DNA of 64,000 bases from Candidatus Eiseniibacteriota bacterium. GTDB taxonomy: Bacteria > Orphanbacterota > Orphanbacteria > Orphanbacterales > Orphanbacteraceae. A model generated the notes under the pieces. That model had not been told where the DNA came from. It made no database searches and saw only the letters and a program-made list of their open reading frames with translations. A program made the position numbers and the translations under genes. Positions 1-12,650 of the stretch are shown here, piece after piece (the first letter of the stretch is position 1; each line of letters begins with the position of its first letter). The stretch is taken from assembly GCA_043809585.1 (NCBI GenBank), contig JBDROZ010000088.1, forward strand, positions 1 through 64,000, in the 5' to 3' direction.

Positions 1-85
1 TCTTCCAAGAACTCCGGACTGCCGTGTGGCCTCATCATCCACCTCCTGCCCGGAGTATAGGACTTTATTTATGCGATTGTCAATA
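1..85 (-). mobile_element. Probable left end of an IS630-family insertion sequence with start of its transposase (runs off window edge)
   Basis: The minus strand reads TA|TTGACAATCGCATAAATAAAG...TATACT...AGGAGGTGG ATG ATG AGG CCA CAC GGC AGT CCG GAG TTC TTG GAA (MMRPHGSPEFLE). This resembles IS630 transposase N-termini (MRPxGSxxxLExRR) as I recall them, and a TA dinucleotide at 84-85 fits IS630 target preference. Only 12 codons are visible. Confidence 0.5.
54..83 (-). promoter_or_regulatory. Sigma70-type promoter (TTGACA-N18-TATACT) driving the leftward gene at the window edge
   Basis: Near-consensus -35 at 83-78 and -10 at 59-54 in an AT-rich patch, followed by an AGGAGG RBS and ATG at 38/35. 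Confidence 0.6.
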
Positions 86-496
86 GTGTTTCCCGGGGGC
101 CATCGGGACCCCCTTCCTCTCGAAGGAGGCATACGCCTCGAGGGCGACCATTCTCGGGTCGTCCGCCTCGAGCACCGCCCCCTCGAGGGGGTTCTGGATG
201 CACCAGTTGATCATCTCCCGGAGGGCGATCACCCGTCCGAGCTGCTGCTGGAACTTCGGATACGTTTCCGGGTGGGTGTTCGCCGCGTTCGGATGGCACT
301 GGCCGCAGGCCACGCCGTTCGTGCCGATCTCCGGGCTGCCCCAGAGTCTCCGGCCTTCGTTCACGACGGTCATGTACTCGCCTTCCCAGCGCTTCAGGTC
401 CTCCTCGGTGAATTCGTCGGCCCGCACCGAGAGGGAACTCCCGATCACCGCGAGGACCATGGCCGCAATAGCCGCCCCAATGACTCTCTTCAGCAT
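80..496 (-). CDS. Small periplasmic monoheme cytochrome c, SoxA-like
   Basis: Sec signal peptide, CGQCH heme motif, and a YPKF...LREMINWCIQNPL segment resembling the SoxA heme domain with a Cys candidate ligand. AGGAG RBS. Confidence 0.8.
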   Translation of the reverse strand: MLKRVIGAAIAAMVLAVIGSSLSVRADEFTEEDLKRWEGEYMTVVNEGRRLWGSPEIGTNGVACGQCHPNAANTHPETYPKFQQQLGRVIALREMINWCIQNPLEGAVLEADDPRMVALEAYASFERKGVPMAPGKHY

Positions 497-507
497 CGTC
501 CTCTCCT

Positions 508-1587
508 TTAGAAATGGGCCTGCGGAGGGATCCGCCGGTTCGGGTCCTGGAACTCCCGGTCCTCGGGCCGGCCCGTTTTCGGGTCAAAGGCCACGACGCG
601 GTTCTCGTTGTTGTACAGGTTGTAATCCACCGCCACCCGGCCGTTATCGAGATCGATGAGCTGCCATCCCGTCGCGTCCCTCTCGAAGAACGGATCGGCC
701 CGGTTCATCGGCACCGTCAGCTTCGGGAGGTGCTGCTTCGCCTGGGCGTAGCTCTCGGGGTACGGCCAGGGCCAGGCGGTGGCCATCACGGCGTGGAAGC
801 TGATGTTGTCGATCTGATTGTACTGGATCTGGTGCACGTGGCCGTAGATCACGGTGGCGTCCTTGAAGGGCTTCAGCAGCGCCTGGACTTCCTCGGCGTC
901 CTCGGTCCAGAAGTTCCACCCCTTGTAGATCTTCTGGATGGGAGAATGGGAGAAGACCACGACGGGCGTCTCCTTCTTCACCTTCCCGAGATCCTCGGCG
1001 AGCCACTTCCGCTGCTCTTCGCCCACCATGAACGGAGAGCCGTTCGGGTTGTCGAGGCCGGCCATCTCGAGCATGCGCTGCTCGGCGGTGGGCCAGCGCT
1101 CGTGGGTCCACTCGTCGTAGGTCAGGATGCTGTTCAGCACCACGAAGTGGACCCCCTTGTGATCGAAGCTGTAGTGGTGGTTTCCGAACAGCTTCGACCA
1201 GTACTTGCCGAGGTCGAGGTAGTAGTCGTGTTCCCCGAGCAGCGCGTAGGTCTTGTAGTTCAGCTTGGCGAGCATCTCCGCGCCGTGGTCGAGTTCTTCT
1301 TTCTTTCCGAGCTGGCCCAGGTCGCCGCCGAACATGACGAAGTCGGGCTTCGGATTGAGAAGGTTCGTCTCCGCCACGGCCCGGATCAGTCCCCGGTCCC
1401 AGTTGCGAACGAACCGGGCCCCCTCGATCTGCTGAATGTGGGCGTCCGAGATATAGGCGAAACGGAAGTTCTTTCTCGGGTCGGCGAAGGCGAGCTCCAC
1501 CATGCTCACGGGAAGCAGGCTCGCGGCCGCGGCCGCTCCCGCTCCTTGCAGGAACCGGCGGCGACTCAGTCTGCGGGATTCTTTCAC
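508..1587 (-). CDS. Tat-exported calcineurin-like metallophosphoesterase
   Basis: GTG start at 1587 after AAGGAGG; twin-arginine signal SRRRFLQ; motifs SDAH, GGDL, GEHD, FSH, GHVH. It is the C-terminal part of track ORF 508..3159. Confidence 0.85.
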   Translation of the reverse strand: MKESRRLSRRRFLQGAGAAAAASLLPVSMVELAFADPRKNFRFAYISDAHIQQIEGARFVRNWDRGLIRAVAETNLLNPKPDFVMFGGDLGQLGKKEELDHGAEMLAKLNYKTYALLGEHDYYLDLGKYWSKLFGNHHYSFDHKGVHFVVLNSILTYDEWTHERWPTAEQRMLEMAGLDNPNGSPFMVGEEQRKWLAEDLGKVKKETPVVVFSHSPIQKIYKGWNFWTEDAEEVQALLKPFKDATVIYGHVHQIQYNQIDNISFHAVMATAWPWPYPESYAQAKQHLPKLTVPMNRADPFFERDATGWQLIDLDNGRVAVDYNLYNNENRVVAFDPKTGRPEDREFQDPNRRIPPQAHF

Positions 1588-1598
1588 GATCGCCTCCT

Positions 1599-2738
1599 TT
1601 ACTCGGTTCCGGACGCTTCCGCGAACTGATAGCTCGTGAGCGCCTCCATGAATGCCACGAGATCGTCGATCTCGGCGTCGGTCAGGCCGAGCGGGCGGAT
1701 GCCGCCGCTCAGGAAGTCGTTGACCTGGTCTCCCTCCGTCGTGACGCCGCCGTTGTTGTAATGTTCCACAACTTCCTTCAGCGTCTTCAGACTGCCGTCG
1801 TGCATGTACGGAGCGGTGAGATCGATGTTGCGGAGCGTCGACGTCTTGAAGGAACCGAGGTCGTCGAAGCCGCGGCTCACGGCGAACCGGCCGAGTTCGG
1901 AAGTCTTCGGGTCCGTGAGGACCTTCACGTCCACCTCCGACAGGGTCGCCTTCGCCTTCAGGAATTCCCCGGCGAGCTTCGGCACGTCCTTCTGGATGCC
2001 GTTGATTCCGACGCCGATGTTGTGAAAACGGTTGTCCGTGAAGAGCGCCTGAGTCTGTTCGATCCGGTGGCACGAGACGCACCGCCCCGCATTCACGAAC
2101 AAGTCGAACCCCCGCTTCTGGGCATCGGTGAGAGCGGTTTCGTCGCCGCCGTAGAGGTAGCGGTCGAACGGAGAGTCGCCCGCGACGACGGTCCTCTCGA
2201 AGGCCGCGATCGCCAGGGTCACCTCCCGGATCGTGGTCCCGTCGCCGCTCTTTCCGAACACCTCCTGAAACCGCTTCGTGTAGTCGGGATCGCTCCGGAC
2301 GATGGCGAGAATCGGCTCGTGGTCCTTCAGCCCCATCTCCACCGGATTGACGAAGGGATGAAGCGACTGGTCCTCCAGGTCCGGGGAGCGCCCGTCCCAG
2401 AAGAGGGTCGTGAAGTAGGCCGAGTTGATCACCGTCGGGGCGTTCCTGGTCCCCGTCTTCTTCTCGATTCCTTCGGAGACGAGAAGCGGGCTGTCGGTGA
2501 AGGCCTTGTCCTCGGCGTGGCAGGTGGCGCAGCTCACCTCGCCGGTCGTGCTGAATCGCTCGTCGTTGAAGAGAATCTCGCCGAGCTCGATCTTCTCCGG
2601 CGTCATGGGGTTGTCTTCGGGAATGGGTGCGGGCGGAAGCCCCAGCAGGGGATTCTCGCCGCCCGCCGCGACGACTCCCGCGGCGAGCATGACCAGCAAT
2701 CCCGCGGCGAGAACCGCCCTCGGCAGATGGTACATCAT
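1599..2738 (-). CDS. Di-heme cytochrome c peroxidase/MauG-family protein
   Basis: Signal peptide; CATCH and CVSCH; RNAPT, FWDGR, NPVEMG, FKTSTLRN, TAPYMHDG motifs. Confidence 0.9.
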   Translation of the reverse strand: MMYHLPRAVLAAGLLVMLAAGVVAAGGENPLLGLPPAPIPEDNPMTPEKIELGEILFNDERFSTTGEVSCATCHAEDKAFTDSPLLVSEGIEKKTGTRNAPTVINSAYFTTLFWDGRSPDLEDQSLHPFVNPVEMGLKDHEPILAIVRSDPDYTKRFQEVFGKSGDGTTIREVTLAIAAFERTVVAGDSPFDRYLYGGDETALTDAQKRGFDLFVNAGRCVSCHRIEQTQALFTDNRFHNIGVGINGIQKDVPKLAGEFLKAKATLSEVDVKVLTDPKTSELGRFAVSRGFDDLGSFKTSTLRNIDLTAPYMHDGSLKTLKEVVEHYNNGGVTTEGDQVNDFLSGGIRPLGLTDAEIDDLVAFMEALTSYQFAEASGTE

Positions 2739-2741
2739 GAT

Positions 2742-3206
2742 TCACCCTCCTTCCGGTGACTTTGCCTTCTTCCCCGCGCAATCTCCGCAAAGACCGCGAA
2801 ACTGAACCCGGTGGTCGGTTACCTCGAACCCGTGGGCCGAAGTGTCCGGCGAGGGAAGGGCATCGAGACGCCCGTCGAAAATGTCGATCACCTTGTCGCA
2901 GCGAAGACAGACGAGATGGTGGTGGAGGTCGACTCGCGGGTCGTAGCGGACCACGCGGCCGGGATGGCACGCCTTCGTGATCAGCGCCAGTTCCGCGAGG
3001 GTTTCGAGCGTGCGGTACACCGTCGCCCGCGAGATCCCGGCCCGCCGCCGGGAAACCGCTTCGAACACCTGATCGGCCGACGGATGGTCGTTCAGATCGA
3101 GGACCGTGTCGAGGATAATCCGGCGCCGGGAAGTGCACGGCACACCCCGGTCGCGGCAACAGGACTCGAGCGCGGCGAGCCGCCTCCGTTTATCCGGTTC
3201 GTCCAT
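2742..3206 (-). CDS. Fur-family transcriptional regulator (PerR-like)
   Basis: DHPSADQVF, ISRATVYRTL helix-turn-helix, HHHLVCLRC and CGDC zinc motifs. Confidence 0.9.
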   Translation of the reverse strand: MDEPDKRRRLAALESCCRDRGVPCTSRRRIILDTVLDLNDHPSADQVFEAVSRRRAGISRATVYRTLETLAELALITKACHPGRVVRYDPRVDLHHHLVCLRCDKVIDIFDGRLDALPSPDTSAHGFEVTDHRVQFRGLCGDCAGKKAKSPEGG

Positions 3207-3696
3207 GGATCACCTTCGCCCGCGGGCGAACGAATCGAGAAACCTGGTTGCGACATTATCTCATCTGAGGAGCGGGGTCAATCCAGTTTCTAACCTGGCT
3301 AACTTCCCGGGGGCCATCCGGCCGGCAAAGGTGGATACCCACTAATCTATTTTAAATGAATCTGTTATGGAAATATCGACAAGGCCGTCCGGCAAGTTTC
3401 TTTGACGACCCGCCCGATCGCCCTCGCCCGAAACGGGAGAGCCCCCCGAGGGGCGGCGCTTCGCTCTCACATGGGGCTCCCACGAGATCGGGGGCGGGCC
3501 TTTCGGTCCGCCCCCGTCGTCGCGTTCCGGCGAGGAGAGAACTACCTGAGCACGACGAACCGCTCGATCTCCGCTCCGCCCTGGTCCGACACGAGCCGGG
3601 GGAGACACATCCCCATAGAGGTTGCGGAGACAGCGCAAATGGGATTGAATCGAGTGGCGGCGGGGCGGGAGGCTCCGCCGGTGGGGGGGAGCGCTC

Positions 3697-5010
3697 TTGA
3701 ACCGTCCGACCTTGCCGCTCCGAAAGAGGACCGCCTTCACGCTCGTCCTCCTCCTTCTCGCCCTGCTGCTCGTCGAGGGATTCGTCTTTCTCGCCTACTG
3801 GGCGATCGAGAAACGCCCCTTCCCCCGCTCCGAGTTCCGAACCGCCATGGCCCTTGCGGGCCGGGGGGGCGATCCCGCCGCGGATCGCGAGACGGAGGGA
3901 GGGGAGATCACGGTCGGCGACCGGTGGGTCGAGGTCATTCATCCGTACCAAGGGTTCGTGCAGCACCCCGAGAAAAACCCGGACCGGTCCGTCTACGGCT
4001 TCCCGGGAGGAGAGGCCGATCTGTTCGTCGGGCGCGGAGCGGGGCGGCTCGTGATCGGCGTGTTCGGCGGCTCCTTCGCCGCCGAGACGCACCGGTACGG
4101 GATGGAGACCATCGCCCGGGAGCTGGAGCCGCTAGGCAAGGAGGTGGTCCTTCTCAATCTCGCCATGGGCGGCTACAAGCAACCCCAACAGTTACTCACG
4201 CTCTCCTACTTCCTCTCGCTCGGGGCCGAGTTCGACGGGGTCGTCAACATCGACGGCTTCAACGAGGTCGCCCTTCCCCTCGCGGAAAACGTGCCCGGCG
4301 GGGTGAACCCGTTCTTCCCGAGGAAGTGGTCGTGGCGGGTCATGGGCACGCTTCCCCCCGAGTCGATCACGGACCTCGCCGAGATGGGGGCGATCGATCG
4401 GCGGCGGCGCTCCTTTGCGCGGACGTTCTCCGAATCCCCTCTCCGGCGGAGCGTGACCGCCTCCTTGATCTGGCGATTCGGCGACGGGCGCATCGAGCGG
4501 CGGCGCGCGGAGATCGAGCGCTCCCTCGCGACCCGCGGGCGGTCGTCGACCGACTACTCCCTCACGGGCCCCCCCGCGGAGTTCAAGAGCGACTGGGAGC
4601 TGTGCGCGGCCCTCGCGGCGAACTGGGAGAGGAGCTCCCGCCTCATGAACGATCTCTGCCTCGCGAATGGCGCCGTGTACCTTCACTTCCTGCAGCCGAA
4701 CCAGTACGTGGAGGGCTCGAAGCCGATGGGCGAGGAGGAGAGGCGGGTCGCGATCTACTTGGGCCACCCGTACCGGCCCGGCGTTCTCCTCGGGTATCCG
4801 TTGCTCTGCGAGCGGGGCCGGGCTCTCGCCTCGGAGGGGATCCCGTTCCACGATCTCACGATGATCTACTCGGGTATCCCCGACGCGATCTACCGCGATT
4901 CGTGCTGCCATCCGAACGAGAGGGGCTACCGGCTCGTGGCCCGGGCGGTCGGCGAGGCCCTTTTCGCCGCCCTGTCGGGCGGGCGGGAACTCCCTCCCCG
5001 CTCCGAATAG
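3697..5010 (+). CDS. Membrane-anchored SGNH/GDSL-like protein
   Basis: N-terminal TM helix; FGGSFA, NLAMGGYKQPQQL, DGFNE, FLQP and D-x-x-H-like YRDSCCHPNERGY motifs. Confidence 0.7.
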   Translation: MNRPTLPLRKRTAFTLVLLLLALLLVEGFVFLAYWAIEKRPFPRSEFRTAMALAGRGGDPAADRETEGGEITVGDRWVEVIHPYQGFVQHPEKNPDRSVYGFPGGEADLFVGRGAGRLVIGVFGGSFAAETHRYGMETIARELEPLGKEVVLLNLAMGGYKQPQQLLTLSYFLSLGAEFDGVVNIDGFNEVALPLAENVPGGVNPFFPRKWSWRVMGTLPPESITDLAEMGAIDRRRRSFARTFSESPLRRSVTASLIWRFGDGRIERRRAEIERSLATRGRSSTDYSLTGPPAEFKSDWELCAALAANWERSSRLMNDLCLANGAVYLHFLQPNQYVEGSKPMGEEERRVAIYLGHPYRPGVLLGYPLLCERGRALASEGIPFHDLTMIYSGIPDAIYRDSCCHPNERGYRLVARAVGEALFAALSGGRELPPRSE

Positions 5011-5037
5011 AAGCCGGCGCCGCCCCCTGAATCAACG

Positions 5038-5068
5038 AGAAGCCGCCGGAGCCTTCCGGCGGATTCTT
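5038..5068 (+). terminator. Stem-loop downstream of SGNH-like gene
   Basis: AGAAGCCGCCGGA-GCCT-TCCGGCGGATTCT inverted repeat. Confidence 0.45.
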
Positions 5069-5221
5069 CATGCCCGGAGATCCGGACAGGCGCCCGCGCG
5101 CGGGGGGTGCGCGCACCGGTCGCCCCGTCGCCGCCGCCGCGGGCCGCTCTTGAGAAGGACGGGACGAGTCGTTAGAATGCCGGTGAAACCGGGTTGTCTC
5201 CGGGGGGAGTCCTCGATCGAC

Positions 5222-7614
5222 ATGAGAATCTTTCGTCTTCTCGCGCCCGCCATCTTCCTCTGCCTCGGGGCGGCCTCGGGAGAAGATTCGGAACCCCTCT
5301 CCCGCGAGCGTGTCCGGGCGGCCCTCGTCCTCTCCCGGGCGAGCGTCGAAGCCGGTTGGTACGGCCCTCAGGTCTCCGCCCAGGGCTGGGGCGGTGTCGC
5401 CTGCCTCGCCGGAACTCCCTACGACACGAGATTCCTCGAGGAGATCGTCCGGGAGCTCGGCGAAGGAAACCCCGCCGGGTACGACGCGATCGCGCTCATC
5501 CGGTGCACTCACGTTCCCGATCGGATCTACGACGATCTTTGCGGCGTGGTCCGGGAGTACCTCGGCGGCGGGGGATGCCTGATCGTCGACGGACCGCCCG
5601 CCGTCTGCGACGACCGGGGGGGGCGCGGGATCCTTCCCGGCTCTTCGAGGCGCTCGGCATGGAGTATGTGGGGTACTTCGGAGGGCCGGCCTACCGGATC
5701 CGGGTGGAGGAGAACGACCACTTCATCACCAGAACCGAAGATACCGGCGCCTATCTCACCCAGCCCCTCGACAACCCGACCGACGTGATCCGCTTTCGGG
5801 AAGAGGGCCTGGTCCTCCTCGCGGCGGCCGGAACCGAGGGGGCGCTCCCCTTCCTTTCGGTTCGGGAAGAAGGGCCGGGCCGGATCGTCCTGGTCAGCGG
5901 TTTGTTCGCGTCCGCCGGCGTCACCTCCCTCTTCCTGAACCAGAGCCCCCTCGGCTTCTATCCGAACCGGGTCTTCGACCCCCTGATCCGGGCACTCCAA
6001 TGGGCGGTCTACGGGGACCCCCGCGGTCCCTATCCGGCGCCCCAGCTCTCCAACGCGGAGATGACCGTCATGATCCGGCTCGACGCGGACGAGAGCGCCG
6101 ACCTGGATCAGCAGATCGAGACGCTCGACTACCTCGACAAGATCGCGGAGGAAACAGGCGTGGTCGCTCTCTACGGGTGGATCGCGGCGGACGCGGCCAA
6201 GGCGGGGTGGGACCGGCTCGCCCCCCTCGCGGGCCGGCTGGAGGAGCGGGGGGGCCAGATCGGGACCCACAGTCACCATCACGAACTCGAAGGGACGATC
6301 ACGGACGAGATCGCCCGGATCGAACTGGACTCGGCGATTCTCGAGATCGAAACGGGCGTCGCCGCGCGGGGCCACCCGATCGGGACCGTCGACTACTTCA
6401 TCAATCCGAACAACACGATCCCCATGGTCCACTACGGGTACCTGGCCGACCGATTCACGTTCTACATGACCCACGGGTTCGAAAGCCGGGCGCCGGTCGC
6501 CTACGGCAACCTCACGTGGTATGCGGGGGATCATCACGACTTCGTGGTGGTGAACGACTCCCCCGTCCCCGACTACCAGTGGTTCTACGACCCCGAGTGG
6601 AAATACACCGTCGACGAGGCGACCGCCTACGAGGATGCCCTCTTCGATCACCTCTTCACCGGAATCGGCCGGGGCGTCCTCTTCAATCAGATGTGGCACG
6701 ACTACGGGGTGAACTCCGCGCCGATCGAATACGGGGACGGCTTCGACTGGTGGGGGCTCTTCCCGAAACGGACCTATCCGCCGGGAGACCTCCGCCCCCA
6801 CTACGACGCCCTTCGGGCGAAGTTCGCCGCCTATCCCGTCTACTCTCCCGACGCGGTCGATCTCGGCCAGAAACTCCGCGCCCTGGCCCAGTGGGATCTC
6901 TCCTGGAAGGTCGAGGGGAACCGTCTCGTGATCGACCTCGATCTCAGAGGCGCCCCGTCCGATTCCCTGGGCCGGTACGTCGGGGGGATGGCGGTCCGGA
7001 TCGAAGACCGCCCGACGCCGGTCCGGTCGGTCCTTCTAAACGGCGAAGAGCTTCCGGCGTTCCGGGACGACCGGGTCATCCTGCCCGATCTCGGGCCCGG
7101 TCCGAACACGATCGAAGTGACGTTCGGCGAAGAGCCCTTGCCGGGGCCCCGCCTCGTCTACGCGTCCAAGAGAACACCCTCGATTCGACGGGAGGGGAAC
7201 CGGATCGTCGTCGACGTGAAGACGAAGGCGAAGGCCCGCTTCTCCTTCCACGTGGACGGTCCCTTCGTCCTCATGAACGCCGACGAGCAGACATGGGACG
7301 GGGAGGAAACCCTTCACGGGACCGCCTCGTCGGACCGCCGGGTCGTCCTCGAGGAGACGCCCGATCTCGGCCTCTCCTTTCTTCGATGCACCGTGCCGAT
7401 CCTCGGATATGAAAAGGAGGAGAACGCCTTGCGGTTCACCCTCGGGGCGCCGAAAGGGGATGAGCGAACGATCGTCCTCGAAACGCGCCGCCCGGTCCGC
7501 GGGGCGACATTCGACGATCATGACCTTCCTCTCTCCGACAGATCAGGGCCTTGGCGGCTCGACCTCCCCGAGTACTCCCGCGCCGGAACGCTCGTCGTCC
7601 GCTTCGGAGAGTGA
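5222..7614 (+). CDS. Secreted protein with polysaccharide-deacetylase-like (NodB-type) domain; frameshifted at a G8 run (5616-5623)
   Basis: ATG 5222 with signal peptide (MRIFRLLAPAIFLCLG) in the frame of ORF 5150..5788. Coding sense continues in the frame of ORF 5194..7614 (IRLDAD, IGTHSHHH metal motifs). One extra G joins them. Confidence 0.65.
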
Positions 7615-9007
7615 TCGGCGGCCGGGGGTTCTCTTCCTGATCCCGACCCTCGAGGCGGGGGGGGCGGAGCGGGTCTGCCTGCACTACGTGAACGGCCTCA
7701 CCCGTTTCCGGCCCGTCCTCGCGGTGCAGTTCCGCCGCGGGGCGCTGCTGGAGGAACTCTGCCCGGGGATACCCCTGGAGGAACTCTGCCCGAGGATACG
7801 CCTTCACGAGATTCAACGGCCGGCGCCTATCGCCGCCGCCGATGAGCGGAACTACCGCCGTCGGCGGGGCCCGCTGCGCCGACGGCTCGCCACCTTCGTC
7901 GAACGTCGCCTGGGAGAGGGGACAACCCGGTTTCTCCAGGAAAGGGAGCGGCGGTGGAACGCTTTGGTCCGCCGCGCGAGGACGGCGCTCCGTCCTCCGG
8001 TTTTCAACCCGGGAGGGAGGAGGCGACGGTTTGGGGGCCTCCCGAGGCTCCATCTTCCTTTCCATTTCCTCTTCCTGCTCGGTCAGGCCCGGCGCGTGGC
8101 CGCGCTCGCAAGGGAGACGGAATGCCCGATCGTCTCCGGATTCCTCCCCTTCACGAACGGGATCGCCCTCTTCGCGAAGGTGTTCTTCCATCGCCGGCTG
8201 AAAGTGGTCGTCAACGTGCACAGCGTGAAGAGCCGGATCCTCGAGGGGGAACCCCCTCGGGAGCGTTTCCTCATCGGATTCCTGATCCGCCGCTTCTACC
8301 CGAAGGCGGACCGCGTCGTCGCCGTGTCGGAGGGCATCCGGCGGGATCTGGTGGAGAGCTTCGGCGTCCCCGAGAGCAAGATCCTGGTCGTTCACAATCC
8401 GATCGATCTCGACCGGATCCGGCGCCTCTCCCTCGAGCCGGTCGACCACCCGTGGGTTTCCACGCCGGAGAAGCCCCTCGTCGTCGCCGCGGGACGGCTG
8501 GTTCGGCTCAAGGGCTTCGACCTGCTCCTCCGGGCGTTCGCCGGACTCCGGAAGAGTGCCGGCGCGAGGCTCTGGATCGTCGGCGACGGGGAAGAACGGG
8601 AGAATCTCGAGGGATTGGTCCGGGAACTCCGTCTGGAAGAGCGGGTCGCCCTTCTCGGGTTCCGGAAGAATCCGTGGAAATACATGAGGCTCGCGGACTG
8701 CCTCGTCCTCTCCTCGCGGGTCGAGGGGTCACCGAACGTGATCGGAGAGGCCCTCGCCCTCGGCCTCCCCGTGATCGCCGCCGACTGCTCGCCCGGCATC
8801 GGGGAGTATCTCGGGGAGGGGCGTTACGGCGTGCTCGTTCCTCCGGAGGACGCCCCGGCCCTCGCCTCCGGGCTCGACGATCTGTTGGCCGACGGGGACC
8901 TCCGAAGCCGCCTCGCGGCCGGAGGGGCCGAACAGGCGGAGCGATTCGCCCTCCCCCGGGCCGTGGCGACCTACGAGACCCTTCTCGAGGAGGTCGTCCG
9001 GGAATGA
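7611..9007 (+). CDS. Glycosyltransferase family 4 (GT-B); start uncertain
   Basis: GGAERV, AVSEG, GRLVRLKGF, EGSPNVIGEA motifs. GTG 7611 overlaps the upstream TGA but needs +1 G at G5 7624-7628; the alternative is an in-frame ATG at 7520. Confidence 0.85.
7748..7801 (+). repeat. 27-bp in-frame tandem duplication (LEELCPGIP/LEELCPRIR)
   Basis: CTGGAGGAACTCTGCCCGGGGATACCC followed by CTGGAGGAACTCTGCCCGAGGATACGC (2 mismatches). Confidence 0.9.
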
Positions 9008-10233
9008 CGGCGCACCCCCCCTCCACCCCCGGCGCGCTCGATGAAGACGGCCTCGAGCCGCGGCGCGTGCTCTTCCTGATTCCGACCCTCGAATACGGGG
9101 GGGCCGAGAGGGTGTTCGCCACCTATGTGAACCGGGCCCGCGCCATCGCACCGTCAGTGCTCCTCCACCGGGGTCTCATCGCCCCTCCCCACCACCCGTC
9201 GCCGGGGATCCCCCTCTCCTTCCTGCTCCCGGCGGAGCCCCGCTCCAAGCGCGATCGCTTCTGGAGCCGGTGGGAGCGTTTCCCCCTGCTCGCCCGGATC
9301 CGCGAGGCCTGGCTGATCCGGAAGGCCGCGGGTCGCCAGCGGTGCCCGGTCGTCTCCAGTTTTCTCCTGAAGAGCACGCGCGTGGCGGTCTTCGCGAAGA
9401 TCTTTTTCGCGCCCCGCCTCCGGGTCGCGGCCAACGTTCACGAACTGATGAGCCAGCACCTTCGTCACGCCCATCCATTCCCTCCGAGCCGGCGGCTTCA
9501 CGAGGCGCTCGCCCGCTTCGCGCTCCGGAGGGCGGACCTGGTGATCGCCGTGGCCGAAGGGGTGAAGACCGATCTCGTCGAACGGTTCGCCGTCCCGGCG
9601 GAGAAGATCCGGGTCGTGTACAACCCGGTCGACGTGGGCGGCGTGCGGCGATCGGGGGAGGAACCTTGGGGAGACGAGTCGTACGGCCCCCCGGGGCACC
9701 GGCTCCTCGTCTCCGTCGGGCGCCTCGTCGAATTGAAGGGTCTCGACTACCTCGTCGACGCCGTCGCGTCGATCTCGCCCCGGTGTCCCGTGACGCTGAT
9801 CATCGTCGGAGAGGGAACCGAACGTCCCGCACTGGAGGAGCGGATCCGAACGGGGGGGCTCGAAGACCGGGTCTTCCTGATCGGCGCGCGGGAGAACCCT
9901 TGGAAATACATGGCCCGTGCGGATCTCTTCATTCTCCCTTCGTTGACCGAGGCGTTTCCCAACGTGATCGGCGAGGCGTTCGCCCTCGGAAAGCCGGTGA
10001 TCGCCGCCGATTGTTCTCCGGGGGTCCGGGAGTATCTCCGGGATGGCGCGTGCGGCCTGCTCGTCCCTCCGGCGAACGCCCGCGCCCTGGCCGAGGGGAT
10101 CGAGCTCCTCCTCGAAGACCCGGCGCTCGGCCGGCGATTCGTGGAAAACGCCGGTAACTGGTTGCCGATGTTGGAGATTGAAGGGTCCGTCCGGAGGTAC
10201 GAAGAGGCGCTTGCCACCCTCTGGAAAGGGTAG
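9004..10233 (+). CDS. Glycosyltransferase family 4 (paralog of upstream GT4)
   Basis: ATGA overlap with upstream stop; VLFLIPTLEYGGAERV, GRLVELKG, EAFPNVIGEA motifs. Confidence 0.9.
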   Translation: MTAHPPSTPGALDEDGLEPRRVLFLIPTLEYGGAERVFATYVNRARAIAPSVLLHRGLIAPPHHPSPGIPLSFLLPAEPRSKRDRFWSRWERFPLLARIREAWLIRKAAGRQRCPVVSSFLLKSTRVAVFAKIFFAPRLRVAANVHELMSQHLRHAHPFPPSRRLHEALARFALRRADLVIAVAEGVKTDLVERFAVPAEKIRVVYNPVDVGGVRRSGEEPWGDESYGPPGHRLLVSVGRLVELKGLDYLVDAVASISPRCPVTLIIVGEGTERPALEERIRTGGLEDRVFLIGARENPWKYMARADLFILPSLTEAFPNVIGEAFALGKPVIAADCSPGVREYLRDGACGLLVPPANARALAEGIELLLEDPALGRRFVENAGNWLPMLEIEGSVRRYEEALATLWKG

Positions 10234-10444
10234 ATCCCCCCCGCCCCCCTCGCTCTCTTCACTGCCCGTACCCGAAAGAACAAAAGAAATAACGGTTCTT
10301 TGAGAACCGCCGAAGCTTTGTGATAGAGGGGCTTCTATTCATAGAGGCGCCCCGGCGGGCGGGGATCGTCGCGCGCGCCCCCTCGGCCGGGAGCCGGATG
10401 GGATCGACAACCCCTCATTGCGGGCATGGGGAAGGGGATCGGCA

Positions 10445-11695
10445 TTGGTCTCTCCATATCAGGGCGGCGGGACGGGTTCGGATTCGGGTGCCTCCGTTCC
10501 GGCGAGAGGGCCCGTCCTTCTCGTCGCGCCCGAGCCGTTCTACGAGGACCGGGGGACGCCGATCGCGATCCGCCAGGTGCTGAAGGGTCTCAGCGATCTC
10601 GGCTACGAGGTCGACCTCCTGACATTTCCCTGCGGGGCCGACATCGAACTCCCCGGGCTCCGGATTCTTCGCATCCCGAATCCGTTCGGGATCCGGAGCG
10701 TGCCGATCGGATTCTCATTCCGCAAAATCCTGCTCGATCTGGTGCTCGCCTCGTCCCTCCGTCGCCGCCTCCGGGAGAGGCCGTACATCCTCGTTCACGC
10801 CGTGGAGGAGGGGGCGTTTCTCGCCGCCTGGATCGCGGGGCCCCGGGGGGTTCCCGTCCTCTACGACATGCAGTCTTCCCTCCCCGAACAGTTGACCCGG
10901 TACGCCGTCTGCCGGCTCCGTCCCGTGCGGAAGGCGCTCTTCGCCTGCGAGCGGTGGCTTCTCTCCCAGGTCGACATGGTCGTCTGCAGCACCGGCCTAC
11001 AAGCCCACGTTCGAGCCCGGGCGCCGTCGGCCGCCGTCTCCGAGTGGCGCTTTTCGAGCGTCTGGCCGGGGGACGCGTCGATCGAAGAGGTGGCGAGGCT
11101 CCGCGAAAGGCTCGGAATCGGGAATGGGAAGAGGGTCGTGATGTACAGCGGATCTTTCGCGCCCTATCAGGGGCTTCCGACACTCCTCGACGCGGTCCCC
11201 CGGGTGCTCCGGGAAGTGCCGGAGACGGTTTTCGTCTTGGTGGGGGCCGACGGGAAGAAGAACGGAGCCCCCTGGCGGGATGCGGACCGCATGATCGAAG
11301 AGGGAACCCTCCTGGTCCTCCCGCGCCGCCCGAGGGAGGAGATGAGCACGTTCTACGCCCTCGCCGACGTGGTCGTCTCTCCCCGCGCCTACGGGAACAA
11401 CCTTCCTCTGAAGGTCTACGACTACATGGCGGCCGGACGTCCGATCGTCGCCACCGACAACGGAAGCCACCGGAAGCTGCTCGACGAGAAGTGCGCGATT
11501 CTCGTCCGCCCCGACGCGGATTCCCTCTCGGGGGGAATCGTCCGCCTCCTCCGGGACGGCGATGAGGCGGCCCGCTTGGGCGCCGCCGCCCGATCCCTTG
11601 CCCGGGAGCAACTTCAGGAGATCTCCTTCTTGGATTTCCTGGCGAGGCGATACGAGGCCCTCGGCGCGGGGAAGGGCGTTCATGGCCGAGGATAG
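10445..11695 (+). CDS. Glycosyltransferase family 4
   Basis: RGTPIA, YSGSFAPYQG, PLKVYDYMAAGRPIVAT motifs. TTG start at 10445 after GAAGGGGA is inferred. Confidence 0.85.
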   Translation: MVSPYQGGGTGSDSGASVPARGPVLLVAPEPFYEDRGTPIAIRQVLKGLSDLGYEVDLLTFPCGADIELPGLRILRIPNPFGIRSVPIGFSFRKILLDLVLASSLRRRLRERPYILVHAVEEGAFLAAWIAGPRGVPVLYDMQSSLPEQLTRYAVCRLRPVRKALFACERWLLSQVDMVVCSTGLQAHVRARAPSAAVSEWRFSSVWPGDASIEEVARLRERLGIGNGKRVVMYSGSFAPYQGLPTLLDAVPRVLREVPETVFVLVGADGKKNGAPWRDADRMIEEGTLLVLPRRPREEMSTFYALADVVVSPRAYGNNLPLKVYDYMAAGRPIVATDNGSHRKLLDEKCAILVRPDADSLSGGIVRLLRDGDEAARLGAAARSLAREQLQEISFLDFLARRYEALGAGKGVHGRG

Positions 11696-12650
11696 GGAGG
11701 CCGGCCGCGATCGGGTCTCGGTGGTGATCCCCGCCCGGAACGAGGGGGGCCGTATCGGCTCGGTCGTCCGCACCGTGCTCGGCCAGGCGACGAACGAAAC
11801 GGAAGTGGAAGTGATCGTGGTCGACGACGGTTCCACGGACGGGACCGAGGGGGAGGCGCGGGCGGCGGGCGCGCGGGTCCTCGGCCCGGGAGAGGCCGGC
11901 GGCGGGAATCCGGCGGCGGCCCGCAACCGGGGAGCGGCCGCGGCGACCGGAAGTATCCTGGTCTTCCTGGACGCCGACTGCCTTCCCGTCCCGGGTTGGC
12001 TCGCGGCCCTTCTCGGCGGCTACCGCCGGGGAATCGACGCGGTGGGAGGTTCCCTCGCGCTCCCCCCCGGCCTCCCCCTCTTCGCGCGGTGCGATCACTA
12101 CTGCGGGACCTACCACATGCATCCGAGGCGGAAGAGGGGAATCGTCGGCCACCACACCCCGTGCAATCTGAGCGTCCGGAAGGAAGCATTCGCGGAAACC
12201 TCCCGTTTCCTCGCGGAGGGCCCCGCCTCTTACGCCCACGAGGAACTCCACTGGCAGGAGGAGCTTCGGGCGAGGGGGGGCGCGATCCTCTTCGAGCCGT
12301 CGGCGAAGGTCTATCACCACGACCGCCCCGGTCTCGTCAATCTGCTCCGGCGGAACTACCGGTGGGGGTTCAGCGCCGTCGAGGCGAAGGCCGGACGGGG
12401 CACGGTCCGTTTCTCCCACCTCTACGGTCGTCCCTGGGTCGCCGTCGTGATGAGCCTCCCCCTGGCGATTCCGTCCACCGTCTACGTGGTCTTCTGCTGG
12501 CTGCGGGTCGGGGTGTACGAACCTCTCCTGCTCTTTCCGTTGGTTCTCGCGGCCCGTATCGCTTACGGTTTCGGGATGATGATCGGCGGGATTCGATGGC
12601 TCGGGCGGCGGCGGCGGGCCTCCGGGGAGGGGGGCCGCGATGAACGGTGA
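11682..12650 (+). CDS. Glycosyltransferase family 2
   Basis: VSVVIPARNE, VVDDGSTD, ARNRGA, FLDADC motifs; C-terminal TM helices. Confidence 0.9.
   Translation: MAEDREAGRDRVSVVIPARNEGGRIGSVVRTVLGQATNETEVEVIVVDDGSTDGTEGEARAAGARVLGPGEAGGGNPAAARNRGAAAATGSILVFLDADCLPVPGWLAALLGGYRRGIDAVGGSLALPPGLPLFARCDHYCGTYHMHPRRKRGIVGHHTPCNLSVRKEAFAETSRFLAEGPASYAHEELHWQEELRARGGAILFEPSAKVYHHDRPGLVNLLRRNYRWGFSAVEAKAGRGTVRFSHLYGRPWVAVVMSLPLAIPSTVYVVFCWLRVGVYEPLLLFPLVLAARIAYGFGMMIGGIRWLGRRRRASGEGGRDER

Follow-up and report, generated by a model that had tools for sequence, protein, structure and literature searches.

Introduction

Within the bacterial cytochrome c peroxidase (bCcP)/MauG superfamily, MauG-type diheme enzymes are told apart from canonical ones by His/Tyr instead of His/Met ligation, and the partner proteins described for them in the passages of PMC11892367 drawn on here are preMADH and amicyanin for MauG and MbnP for MbnH. 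BthA from Burkholderia is likewise of the His/Tyr type and is encoded beside PhosA, an exported protein of metallophosphoesterase fold (PMC6405878, in part). The latter is the nearest published pairing to the cassette analyzed in this work, which lies at the beginning of a 64,000-nt stretch of DNA (contig JBDROZ010000088.1, positions 1 to 64,000, forward strand; hereafter the window) and encodes a Fur-family regulator, a diheme cytochrome c (DH), a Tat-signal protein of calcineurin-like metallophosphoesterase fold (MPE) and a small cytochrome c with SoxA/TsdA fold. No publication on this cassette was found in a literature search that covers few subscription papers. Our analysis indicates that MPE is likely a new kind of redox enzyme, neither a phosphatase nor a target of the diheme enzyme.

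The cassette resembles the MauG and MbnH systems in the diheme fold, the predicted His/Tyr-ligated E-heme, the inter-heme Trp, the Gln/Pro/Glu distal pocket and the presence of a co-encoded periplasmic, Trp-rich partner. It differs from them in that DH stays below the cut-offs of both TIGR03791 and TIGR04039, no MADH subunits or MbnP are encoded nearby, the DH of the window has no second Trp, and the MPE family also occurs without any such enzyme. BthA is only a distant match of DH (6nx0, E 1e-11) and, as described in PMC6405878, has neither the inter-heme Trp nor the Ca site. PhosA, in contrast to MPE, is a putative purple acid phosphatase that faces outward from the outer membrane, and the passages on this pair mention induction under anaerobic growth and neither a His/Cys cytochrome nor a link to PerR or OxyR (PMC6405878).

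A four-gene cassette

All four genes lie on the minus strand and are separated by gaps of 3, 11 and 11 bp, so that the co-orientation seen in the initial annotation holds. The regulator gene comes first (2742..3206; 154 amino acids, PerR-type features, PF01475 with E 7e-24), followed by the genes for DH (1599..2738; 379 amino acids, Sec-like signal, PF03150 with E 2e-54), MPE (508..1587; GTG start, 359 amino acids, PF00149 and the TAT_signal family PF10518) and the cytochrome (80..496; 138 amino acids in a single domain, PF21342 with E 1e-12). Export signals are present in all three proteins encoded behind the regulator. The motifs singled out earlier are present as well: LKEVVEHY, FWDGR and HPFVNPVEM in DH, and GWNFW and AWPWPY in MPE. 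The initial annotation does not mention the exchange of Asn for Glu in MPE (GEHD), the operator at 3248-3264 or the IS end at 1-86, which are described below. Shine-Dalgarno-like sites are strong at the DH, MPE and cytochrome genes and weaker at the regulator gene. Each gene is single-copy in the genome, except that the regulator has one distant Fur paralogue and MPE some weak fold matches. No protein of the operon attains the curated NCBIfam cut-off for a named enzyme.

Predicted dimetal site of MPE and predicted docking to the cytochrome

An AlphaFold2 (AF2) model of MPE calculated from 109 diverse alignment rows reached a mean predicted local distance difference test (pLDDT) of 92.8; an earlier model from a shallow 30-sequence alignment was discarded (pLDDT 50.6). 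The closest solved folds are GpdQ (Z 25.5, root-mean-square deviation 2.8, 239 residues aligned) and Rv0805 (Z 24.3). MPE has the calcineurin-like fold with the DxH, GD, H and GHxH motifs. The motif with the Asn metal ligand, GNH(D/E), is absent, as MPE reads GEHD where GpdQ has GNHD in the alignment. The Glu concerned, E119, is present in all 76 cytochrome-linked MPE rows, and among 62 sequences that could be parsed from 150 distant MPE representatives 51 have GEHD and none has GNHD. Compared with the class III phosphodiesterases GpdQ, Rv0805 and CpdA, MPE thus keeps six of the seven metal ligands and the His that follows but has exchanged Asn for Glu at the second metal; it is only 17-20% identical to them and differs further by its Tat signal, Trp-rich loops, C-terminal extension and redox-carrier partners.

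The predicted ligands of the two metals are D48, H50, D89, E119, H214, H250 and H252. If these are mapped onto the ligand assignment that we take to apply to GpdQ, D48, H50 and H252 would bind one metal, E119, H214 and H250 the other, and D89 would bridge the two, such that each metal is held by two His and one carboxylate in addition to the shared Asp. Four His, two Asp and one Glu, with one Asp as a bridge, are also the ligands of the flavodiiron O2/NO reductases, according to the passages of PMC12799149 that deal with their site. The two protein types have in common a hydrolase fold and an adjoining redox cofactor. They differ in that flavodiiron proteins combine metallo-beta-lactamase and flavodoxin domains, whereas MPE is calcineurin-like and periplasmic, with a c-type heme on a separate subunit in the place of the flavin mononucleotide (FMN). 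Only the composition of the ligand set matches across these unrelated folds, an analogy that is no proof of iron or of redox activity.

The cytochrome exceeds the cut-off for PF21342 (48 versus 27 bits), which identifies it as a His/Cys heme domain. Its CxxCH motif (residues 64-68) and Cys99 occur in 76 of 76 aligned homologues and are predicted to provide His68/Cys99 ligation. The predicted complex of MPE with this cytochrome scored 0.88 (individual runs 0.54, 0.89 and 0.88), compared with 0.00 for the best of three controls. Among 157 solved pairs 116 attained the mark used for such scores, as did 2 among 215 mismatched ones, and these figures apply only roughly to the present case. The runs share at least 70% of their contacts, and the partner pLDDT is at least 88. 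In full numbering, contacts from MPE to the cytochrome are predicted for H50 with Q66, W272 with C67 and Q66, W224 with P69 and N70, and W274 with C67 and P69. The contacted stretch Q66-N70 is the CxxCH loop, and the model therefore has the heme-binding loop docking at a metal ligand, H50, flanked by tryptophans that are invariant: W224, W272 and W274 are found in 76 of 76 cytochrome-linked MPEs, including clades without a diheme enzyme. Such docking would explain the conservation of the three residues as parts of an interface and electron path, with no need for their modification. No similar complex was among the matches of sequence and fold searches of the PDB. The earlier proposal that the cytochrome is a redox partner of the phosphoesterase-fold protein gains support from this model.

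MPE and a carrier form the core, other partners are exchanged

A species-level genome set contains at least 501 stretches with MPE relatives. In the best 80 of these, which we refer to as the closest loci, DH precedes MPE in 80 of 80 and the cytochrome follows it in 78 of 80, both misses being contig ends. The trio is therefore not a chance assembly, and the conservation on which the initial annotation had made its proposal depend is borne out. Beyond the trio, the only genes that return at more than a handful of the 80 loci are those for Fur (40), LysR (12) and a ferritin-like protein (9). The closest loci span Acidobacteriota, Latescibacterota, Planctomycetota, Gemmatimonadota, Calditrichia, Armatimonadota, Gammaproteobacteria and others. 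Occurrence is patchy, with the cassette present in one of ten genomes of the window's own phylum and MPE matches in 44 of 401, 18 of 251 and 23 of 251 genomes of three other samples, each of which includes its centre genome and two of which include one unpublished genome in the tally (G053 and G688); these two genomes enter into no other statement made here. Hosts are sediment anaerobes, methanotrophs and rhizobia; cultured ones are Methylomicrobium lacus, Steroidobacter gossypii, Methylocystis sp. MJC1 and Sinorhizobium meliloti.

Wider flanks of 40 gammaproteobacterial stretches and of further loci revealed several arrangement classes. Classes A and B have the order DH-MPE-cytochrome. Class C (7 loci) consists of MPE and cytochrome without adjacent DH, mostly followed by an Lcl_C protein. 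In class D (5 gammaproteobacterial loci, and also on rhizobial plasmids together with SCO, hemA and a P-type ATPase) MPE and cytochrome are followed by CcoN-like and triheme CcoO-like genes. Class E pairs MPE with a cupredoxin, often together with an extracytoplasmic function (ECF) sigma factor, or, in Acidobacteria, with a cytochrome c. The five loci of class F yielded no carrier, and class G consists of MPE and cytochrome alone (2 loci, in one of which DH is encoded 16 kb away). By profile searches, an electron carrier is encoded directly downstream of MPE in 135 of 153 non-truncated loci (158 loci in all), and inspection showed that 8 of the 18 misses have an extended His/Cys cytochrome or a different cytochrome c; because 80 of the 158 are close relatives, this tally is not an independent count. 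Genuine fusions join MPE to a cupredoxin, a CuA-like or a Rieske domain (P0343, P0348 and P0355). Apparent MPE-cytochrome fusions (P0396-P0398) were rejected: they contain a shortened MPE and a signal peptide in their interior and are likely frameshift artefacts.

An informative case is G350, a one-contig assembly of 2.54 Mb with a class D locus for MPE, cytochrome and cbb3-like oxidase, in which no match to PF03150 (CCP_MauG) was found. MPE and its carrier are thus the fixed core of the system, and in some clades DH is missing or has a cbb3-like oxidase in its place. A quick tree places the DH-linked (A and B), Lcl-linked (C), oxidase-linked (D) and cupredoxin-linked (E) MPEs in separate groups, with two diheme-less class G rows nested within A. 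Its branches are long and no order of events is drawn from it.

Several observations on these relatives stand on their own. The protein encoded after MPE and cytochrome at six class C loci (L116, L117, L118, L120, L136 and L137) carries an Lcl C-terminal domain (PF07603), and the class C cytochrome has a conserved C-terminal extension. The oxidase that accompanies MPE and cytochrome at L119, L121, L122, L123, L125, L230 and L231 is divergent, its CcoN-like subunit scoring about 230 bits against a cut-off of 583 and its CcoO being fused to further hemes; most of these loci have an upstream gene for a carboxypeptidase-regulatory-like protein. On the rhizobial plasmids (L227, L231, L232 and L234), SoxY, SoxZ, a cytochrome c and the flavoprotein of flavocytochrome c sulfide dehydrogenase (FCSD) adjoin the cassette in Sinorhizobium, and FCSD adjoins it in Rhizobium gallicum. 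Oxidase genes and MPE have become separated in the Sinorhizobium records, and the loci are class D cassettes or remnants. A plasmid of Methylocystis bryophila (L228) carries a 69%-identical MPE alone among transposases and siderophore genes, without an annotated diheme enzyme or cytochrome; it is probably a displaced remnant.

Regulator, operator and a probable link to peroxide

The best PDB match of the regulator is PerR from B. subtilis (2fe3). The regulator has the residues of a PerR-type site, H41, D89, H95, H97 and D108, the last located five residues after the first of two CxxC motifs, which together would form a Cys4 zinc site. D108 coincides with the Asp of PerR where Fur structures have Glu, a difference that we take to be diagnostic, and Asp is found in this position in all 38 parsed Fur neighbours. 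The NCBIfam scores are below the cut-offs for both Fur (88.9 versus 220) and PerR (84.6 versus 180).

Upstream flanks of 1.2 kb or more were available for 88 trio loci. Of these, 37 have a PerR-type (Asp) Fur protein, 8 a two-Cys OxyR-like protein, 7 an OxyR-like protein comprising only the helix-turn-helix (HTH) part and 2 another Fur protein; regulators of PerR or OxyR type thus flank 45 of the 88. OxyR is the best match of the OxyR-like neighbours, yet they stay below its NCBIfam cut-off. Catalase and peroxiredoxin genes are also found among the neighbours of the cassette. The case for peroxide control rests chiefly on two unrelated peroxide-type sensors being encoded beside this one cassette. 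Of 14 loci without DH, one has a PerR-type Fur (L135), two have HTH-only genes (L117 and L118) and 11 have none of these within 1.5 kb; catalase and OxyR are encoded a little further off at L120. The short OxyR-like HTH genes lie directly upstream of the cassette (L065, L066, L067, L070, L073, L076, L078, L117 and L118), in Steroidobacter-like and other loci, lack a sensing domain and encode about 110 amino acids where the reading frame is clean.

A palindromic operator, likely bound by the Fur/PerR protein, lies ahead of the regulator gene (3248..3264, minus strand; ATGAGATAATGTCGCAA). The underlying 17-bp motif (consensus TTGAGACA-n-TGTCTCAA) was trained on 30 other loci with the window left out and has a mean of 15.9 bits, compared with 7.2-7.8 in shuffles. 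With 20.2 bits the site in the window outscores every other one in the genome (4.24 Mb); of 40 loci that lack Fur, just 2 attain 14 bits. The second-best match in the genome precedes the other Fur-family gene, a Zur-like one ahead of ZnuA-type ABC transporter genes (G000:C6:1199-4099, L213), and the motif may therefore be shared between the two regulators. By eye, a -10 region located 17 nt after TTGACC (3281-3276) coincides in part with the operator; a promoter scanner called no promoter at this position. The PerR-type Asp, the OxyR neighbours and the operator together favour the peroxide response that the initial annotation had considered, as far as sequence features can indicate it.

Proposed function and direction of electron flow

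We give even chances to a function of the cassette as a peroxide-induced heme-dimetal oxidoreductase, composed of MPE and the cytochrome, from which electrons pass to H2O2 via DH. Release of the PerR-type repressor by peroxide would induce the cassette. In the periplasm, MPE would join the His/Cys cytochrome in a predicted two-subunit enzyme whose metal pair would oxidise a small molecule, and the electrons would travel over the conserved tryptophans and the heme to the His/Tyr-ligated DH, which would spend them on the reduction of H2O2. We infer that the metals are Fe or Mn, that electrons run in this direction and that DH is their sink. Our guess for the substrate is one of the reactive species of oxygen, nitrogen or sulfur, or else a metal ion in reduced form, whose encounter with peroxide would be harmful. 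The assignment of DH as the exit towards H2O2 is made because DH and the cbb3-like oxidase are exchanged partners and both are possible sinks, and because BthA reduces H2O2 (PMC6405878, in part).

Several points weigh against this proposal. Residue H120, the general acid of hydrolases, is invariant in 76 of 76 cytochrome-linked MPE rows. His/Cys hemes usually have low potentials, which fits poorly with the acceptance of electrons from a mild reductant. One of the three complex runs remained at 0.54, and these runs used custom paired alignments and ligands, unlike the calibration set. No PerR- or OxyR-type regulator is encoded within 1.5 kb at 34 of the 88 trio loci, and the 37 PerR loci include many close relatives. 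Finally, all 21 scorable DH loci of the closest clade are tied to MPE, as would also be expected for a dedicated maturase.

The low potential usual for His/Cys hemes agrees better with electrons flowing the other way. The heme would then play the part that FMN has in flavodiiron proteins and feed a diiron site for the reduction of H2O2, O2 or NO, and DH and the cbb3-like oxidase would be no more than co-regulated scavengers. The flavodiiron-like ligand set, the predicted position of the heme loop beside H50 and the peroxide-type regulators at diheme-less loci (L135, L117 and L118, with catalase and OxyR near L120) are all in line with this direction. However, no gene for an electron donor was found in any cassette examined, and the exchangeable partners, i.e. 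a peroxidase-type diheme, a cbb3-like oxidase, cupredoxin, CuA and Rieske proteins, are sinks or carriers whose potentials we take to be high. We consider the reverse direction unlikely.

The diheme enzyme and the tryptophans of MPE

DH is a clear member of its superfamily (PF03150, 184 bits versus a cut-off of 25.6) with two invariant CxxCH motifs (C70/C73/H74 and C220/C223/H224). Its best PDB match is 6e1c (E 8e-52), which we take to be MbnH. In the alignment, Tyr327 coincides with the Tyr of 6e1c and with Met in the canonical bCcPs 2c1u, 1iqc and 1nml, and it maps without gaps onto residue 294 of MauG, presumably the Tyr ligand of that enzyme. Tyr327 is conserved in 107 of 109 DH homologues, the inter-heme Trp114 in 104 of 109 and the predicted distal residues Q124, P128 and E134 in 107-109 of 109. 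An E-heme of the His/Tyr type with Y327 as ligand is thereby predicted, in agreement with the MauG-type assignment of the initial annotation. DH is neither MauG proper (TIGR03791, 199 bits versus a cut-off of 444) nor a member of the MbnH family (TIGR04039, 266 versus 363 bits). No MADH-like gene recurs around the cassette in the closest loci, and the gene adjoining DH belongs to PF00149 and is not MbnP.

The initial annotation had gone further and proposed that DH forms bis-Fe(IV) and oxidises tryptophans of MPE, for which MauG with preMADH and MbnH with MbnP would be analogues (PMC11892367, in part). A quinone or kynurenine cofactor would arise in this way, and the cytochrome would serve the matured enzyme. 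His/Tyr ligation combined with the inter-heme Trp and the Gln/Pro/Glu pocket is consistent with such chemistry as outlined in PMC11892367, MPE comes next to all 21 dihemes of the closest clade with room for it, and W224, W272 and W274 are predicted to lie at the heme interface beside H50. The authors of the BthA study, moreover, proposed oxidation of the neighbouring purple acid phosphatase (PMC6405878, in part). Against it stands the distribution of the residues concerned. W224 is conserved in 63 of 64 MPE rows that span all arrangement classes, W227 is Gln in class C, and in a comparison across the classes no Trp of MPE correlates with the presence of DH. The tryptophans persist without DH, also in G350 with its lack of a PF03150 gene and in G284, whose sole diheme match is of the Met type in an assembly of only 1.4 Mb, and this weakens the reading of DH as their modifier. 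Several of the diheme-less genomes do carry unlinked Tyr-type dihemes, but those inspected have neighbours of their own. W114 is the only Trp in the DH of the window, and the position of Trp199, the surface relay of MauG, is occupied by Gly/Ala, although the conserved Tyr108, Tyr153 or Tyr311 could relay instead. Modification of MPE by DH thus appears doubtful, a little more so than a reversed electron flow.

Further relatives of DH show other associations. More distant Tyr-type dihemes often occur without MPE, and three of them stand beside a two-Cys OxyR. In one Tyr-type clade without MPE (L323, L324, L334, L344, L346 and L347) the diheme gene is followed by a conserved lipoprotein-like gene for about 250-265 amino acids, which is a separate uncharacterised pairing. 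MauG-like dihemes at L166, L180 and L181 (TIGR03791, 268-353 bits) are followed by genes for a small cupredoxin-like protein and a diheme cytochrome, and no MADH gene was seen within 1.5 kb flanks. L130, where a distant MPE lies near another diheme, was considered as a second recruitment and rejected because that diheme has Phe in the position of the Tyr.

Hydrolysis and sulfur chemistry as alternative readings

Relatives of MPE are named Icc/CpdA in the source annotations, and its fold is nearest to GpdQ and Rv0805. An Atlas search returned metallophosphoesterase clusters only. Like H120, R296 is unchanged throughout the 76 cytochrome-linked rows, and MPE may therefore still bind anions. An ordinary periplasmic CpdA/GpdQ-like phosphoesterase that is merely co-regulated with a peroxidase and a cytochrome is nevertheless improbable: the Asn ligand is lost throughout the family, MPE stays below all NCBIfam phosphodiesterase cut-offs (e.g. 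CpdA, 29 versus 225 bits), it is found fused to redox carriers, and the predicted docking site of the cytochrome lies on the loops around H50.

Source annotations label the cytochrome a thiosulfate dehydrogenase. It shares with SoxA and TsdA the PF21342 fold family and the CxxCH motif with a distal Cys, Cys99 aligning with the Cys of both, but is a single small domain, nearer to the N-terminal domain of SoxA (39 bits) than to the catalytic one (8.7 bits), and misses the SoxA model TIGR04484 (45 bits versus a cut-off of 110). In TsdA, thiosulfate is bound by Arg109, Arg119 and Ser127 around Cys123, and Arg119 is given as invariant in TsdA and SoxA in the passages of PMC4423706 that describe the site. 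The same offsets from C99 lead to Q85, M95 and P103 (69, 73 and 74 of 76 sequences); four residues before the Cys there is Met in 73 of 76 and Arg in 0 of 76. Because the Arg and Ser equivalents are replaced, the cytochrome, judged by these positions, more probably carries electrons than acts on thiosulfate. A Sox-like mini-system with thiosulfate chemistry at the Cys ligand of the cytochrome and MPE in the role of the thiohydrolase SoxB is accordingly the least probable reading of all, even though the PF21342 match, the invariant Cys99, the SoxYZ and FCSD genes beside the oxidase-type cassette on Sinorhizobium plasmids, FCSD in Rhizobium gallicum, a SoxAX fusion near L145 and rhodaneses near some loci speak for it, since SoxB is only a distant fold match of MPE (Z 13.4 versus 25.5 for GpdQ), the thiosulfate-binding residues are missing and sulfur genes do not recur near the closest loci beyond one clade. 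In the heme-dimetal oxidoreductase that we propose, the metal pair may still have a sulfur compound as its substrate.

Flanking features

The window begins with the end of a multi-copy insertion sequence (IS) element (1..86, minus strand) that is outside the system and that we presume to belong to the IS630 group. Positions 1-79 recur in five other contigs, the match extending to 86 in four close copies, and the copy on C122 codes for a frameshifted transposase-like protein. The element appears to have inserted at CTAG inside the stop codon of the cytochrome gene, thereby adding Tyr138 and a new TGA; GKH is the C-terminal end in 54 of 76 homologues. A strong sigma-70-like promoter within the IS end (83..54, 11/12) serves the element's own transposase. 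Plus-strand genes at 3697-12650 are unrelated to the cassette. The first encodes a 437-amino acid protein without Pfam match and is followed by polysaccharide deacetylase-like and several glycosyltransferase-like reading frames, named by eye from their translations.

Implications

To our knowledge, no redox function is on record for the calcineurin-like fold, and none was reported for this family in the literature searched. New here are the predicted interface between heme and metal site, the match to a flavodiiron-type ligand set, the operator, the missing Arg of SoxA/TsdA in the cytochrome, and a genome with MPE and cytochrome but without any CCP_MauG gene. The evidence leans slightly towards the view that the GEHD branch of the calcineurin-like phosphoesterases, thousands of sequences annotated as phosphodiesterases, consists of periplasmic dimetal oxidoreductases in which a flavodiiron-like site evolved independently and is wired by Trp residues to an exchangeable carrier, be it a His/Cys cytochrome, cupredoxin, CuA, Rieske protein or cytochrome c; the cassette of the window would represent a pathway of peroxide defence not described so far, with a DH able to form bis-Fe(IV). 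If this is true, the calcineurin-like fold gains a redox function, and at least 4,519 close sequences labelled Icc/CpdA, as well as the cytochrome labelled thiosulfate dehydrogenase, would have to be re-annotated. It would also offer an answer to the question of what role is played by His/Tyr diheme enzymes without a known protein substrate, such as BthA, which likewise resides beside a phosphoesterase-fold gene.

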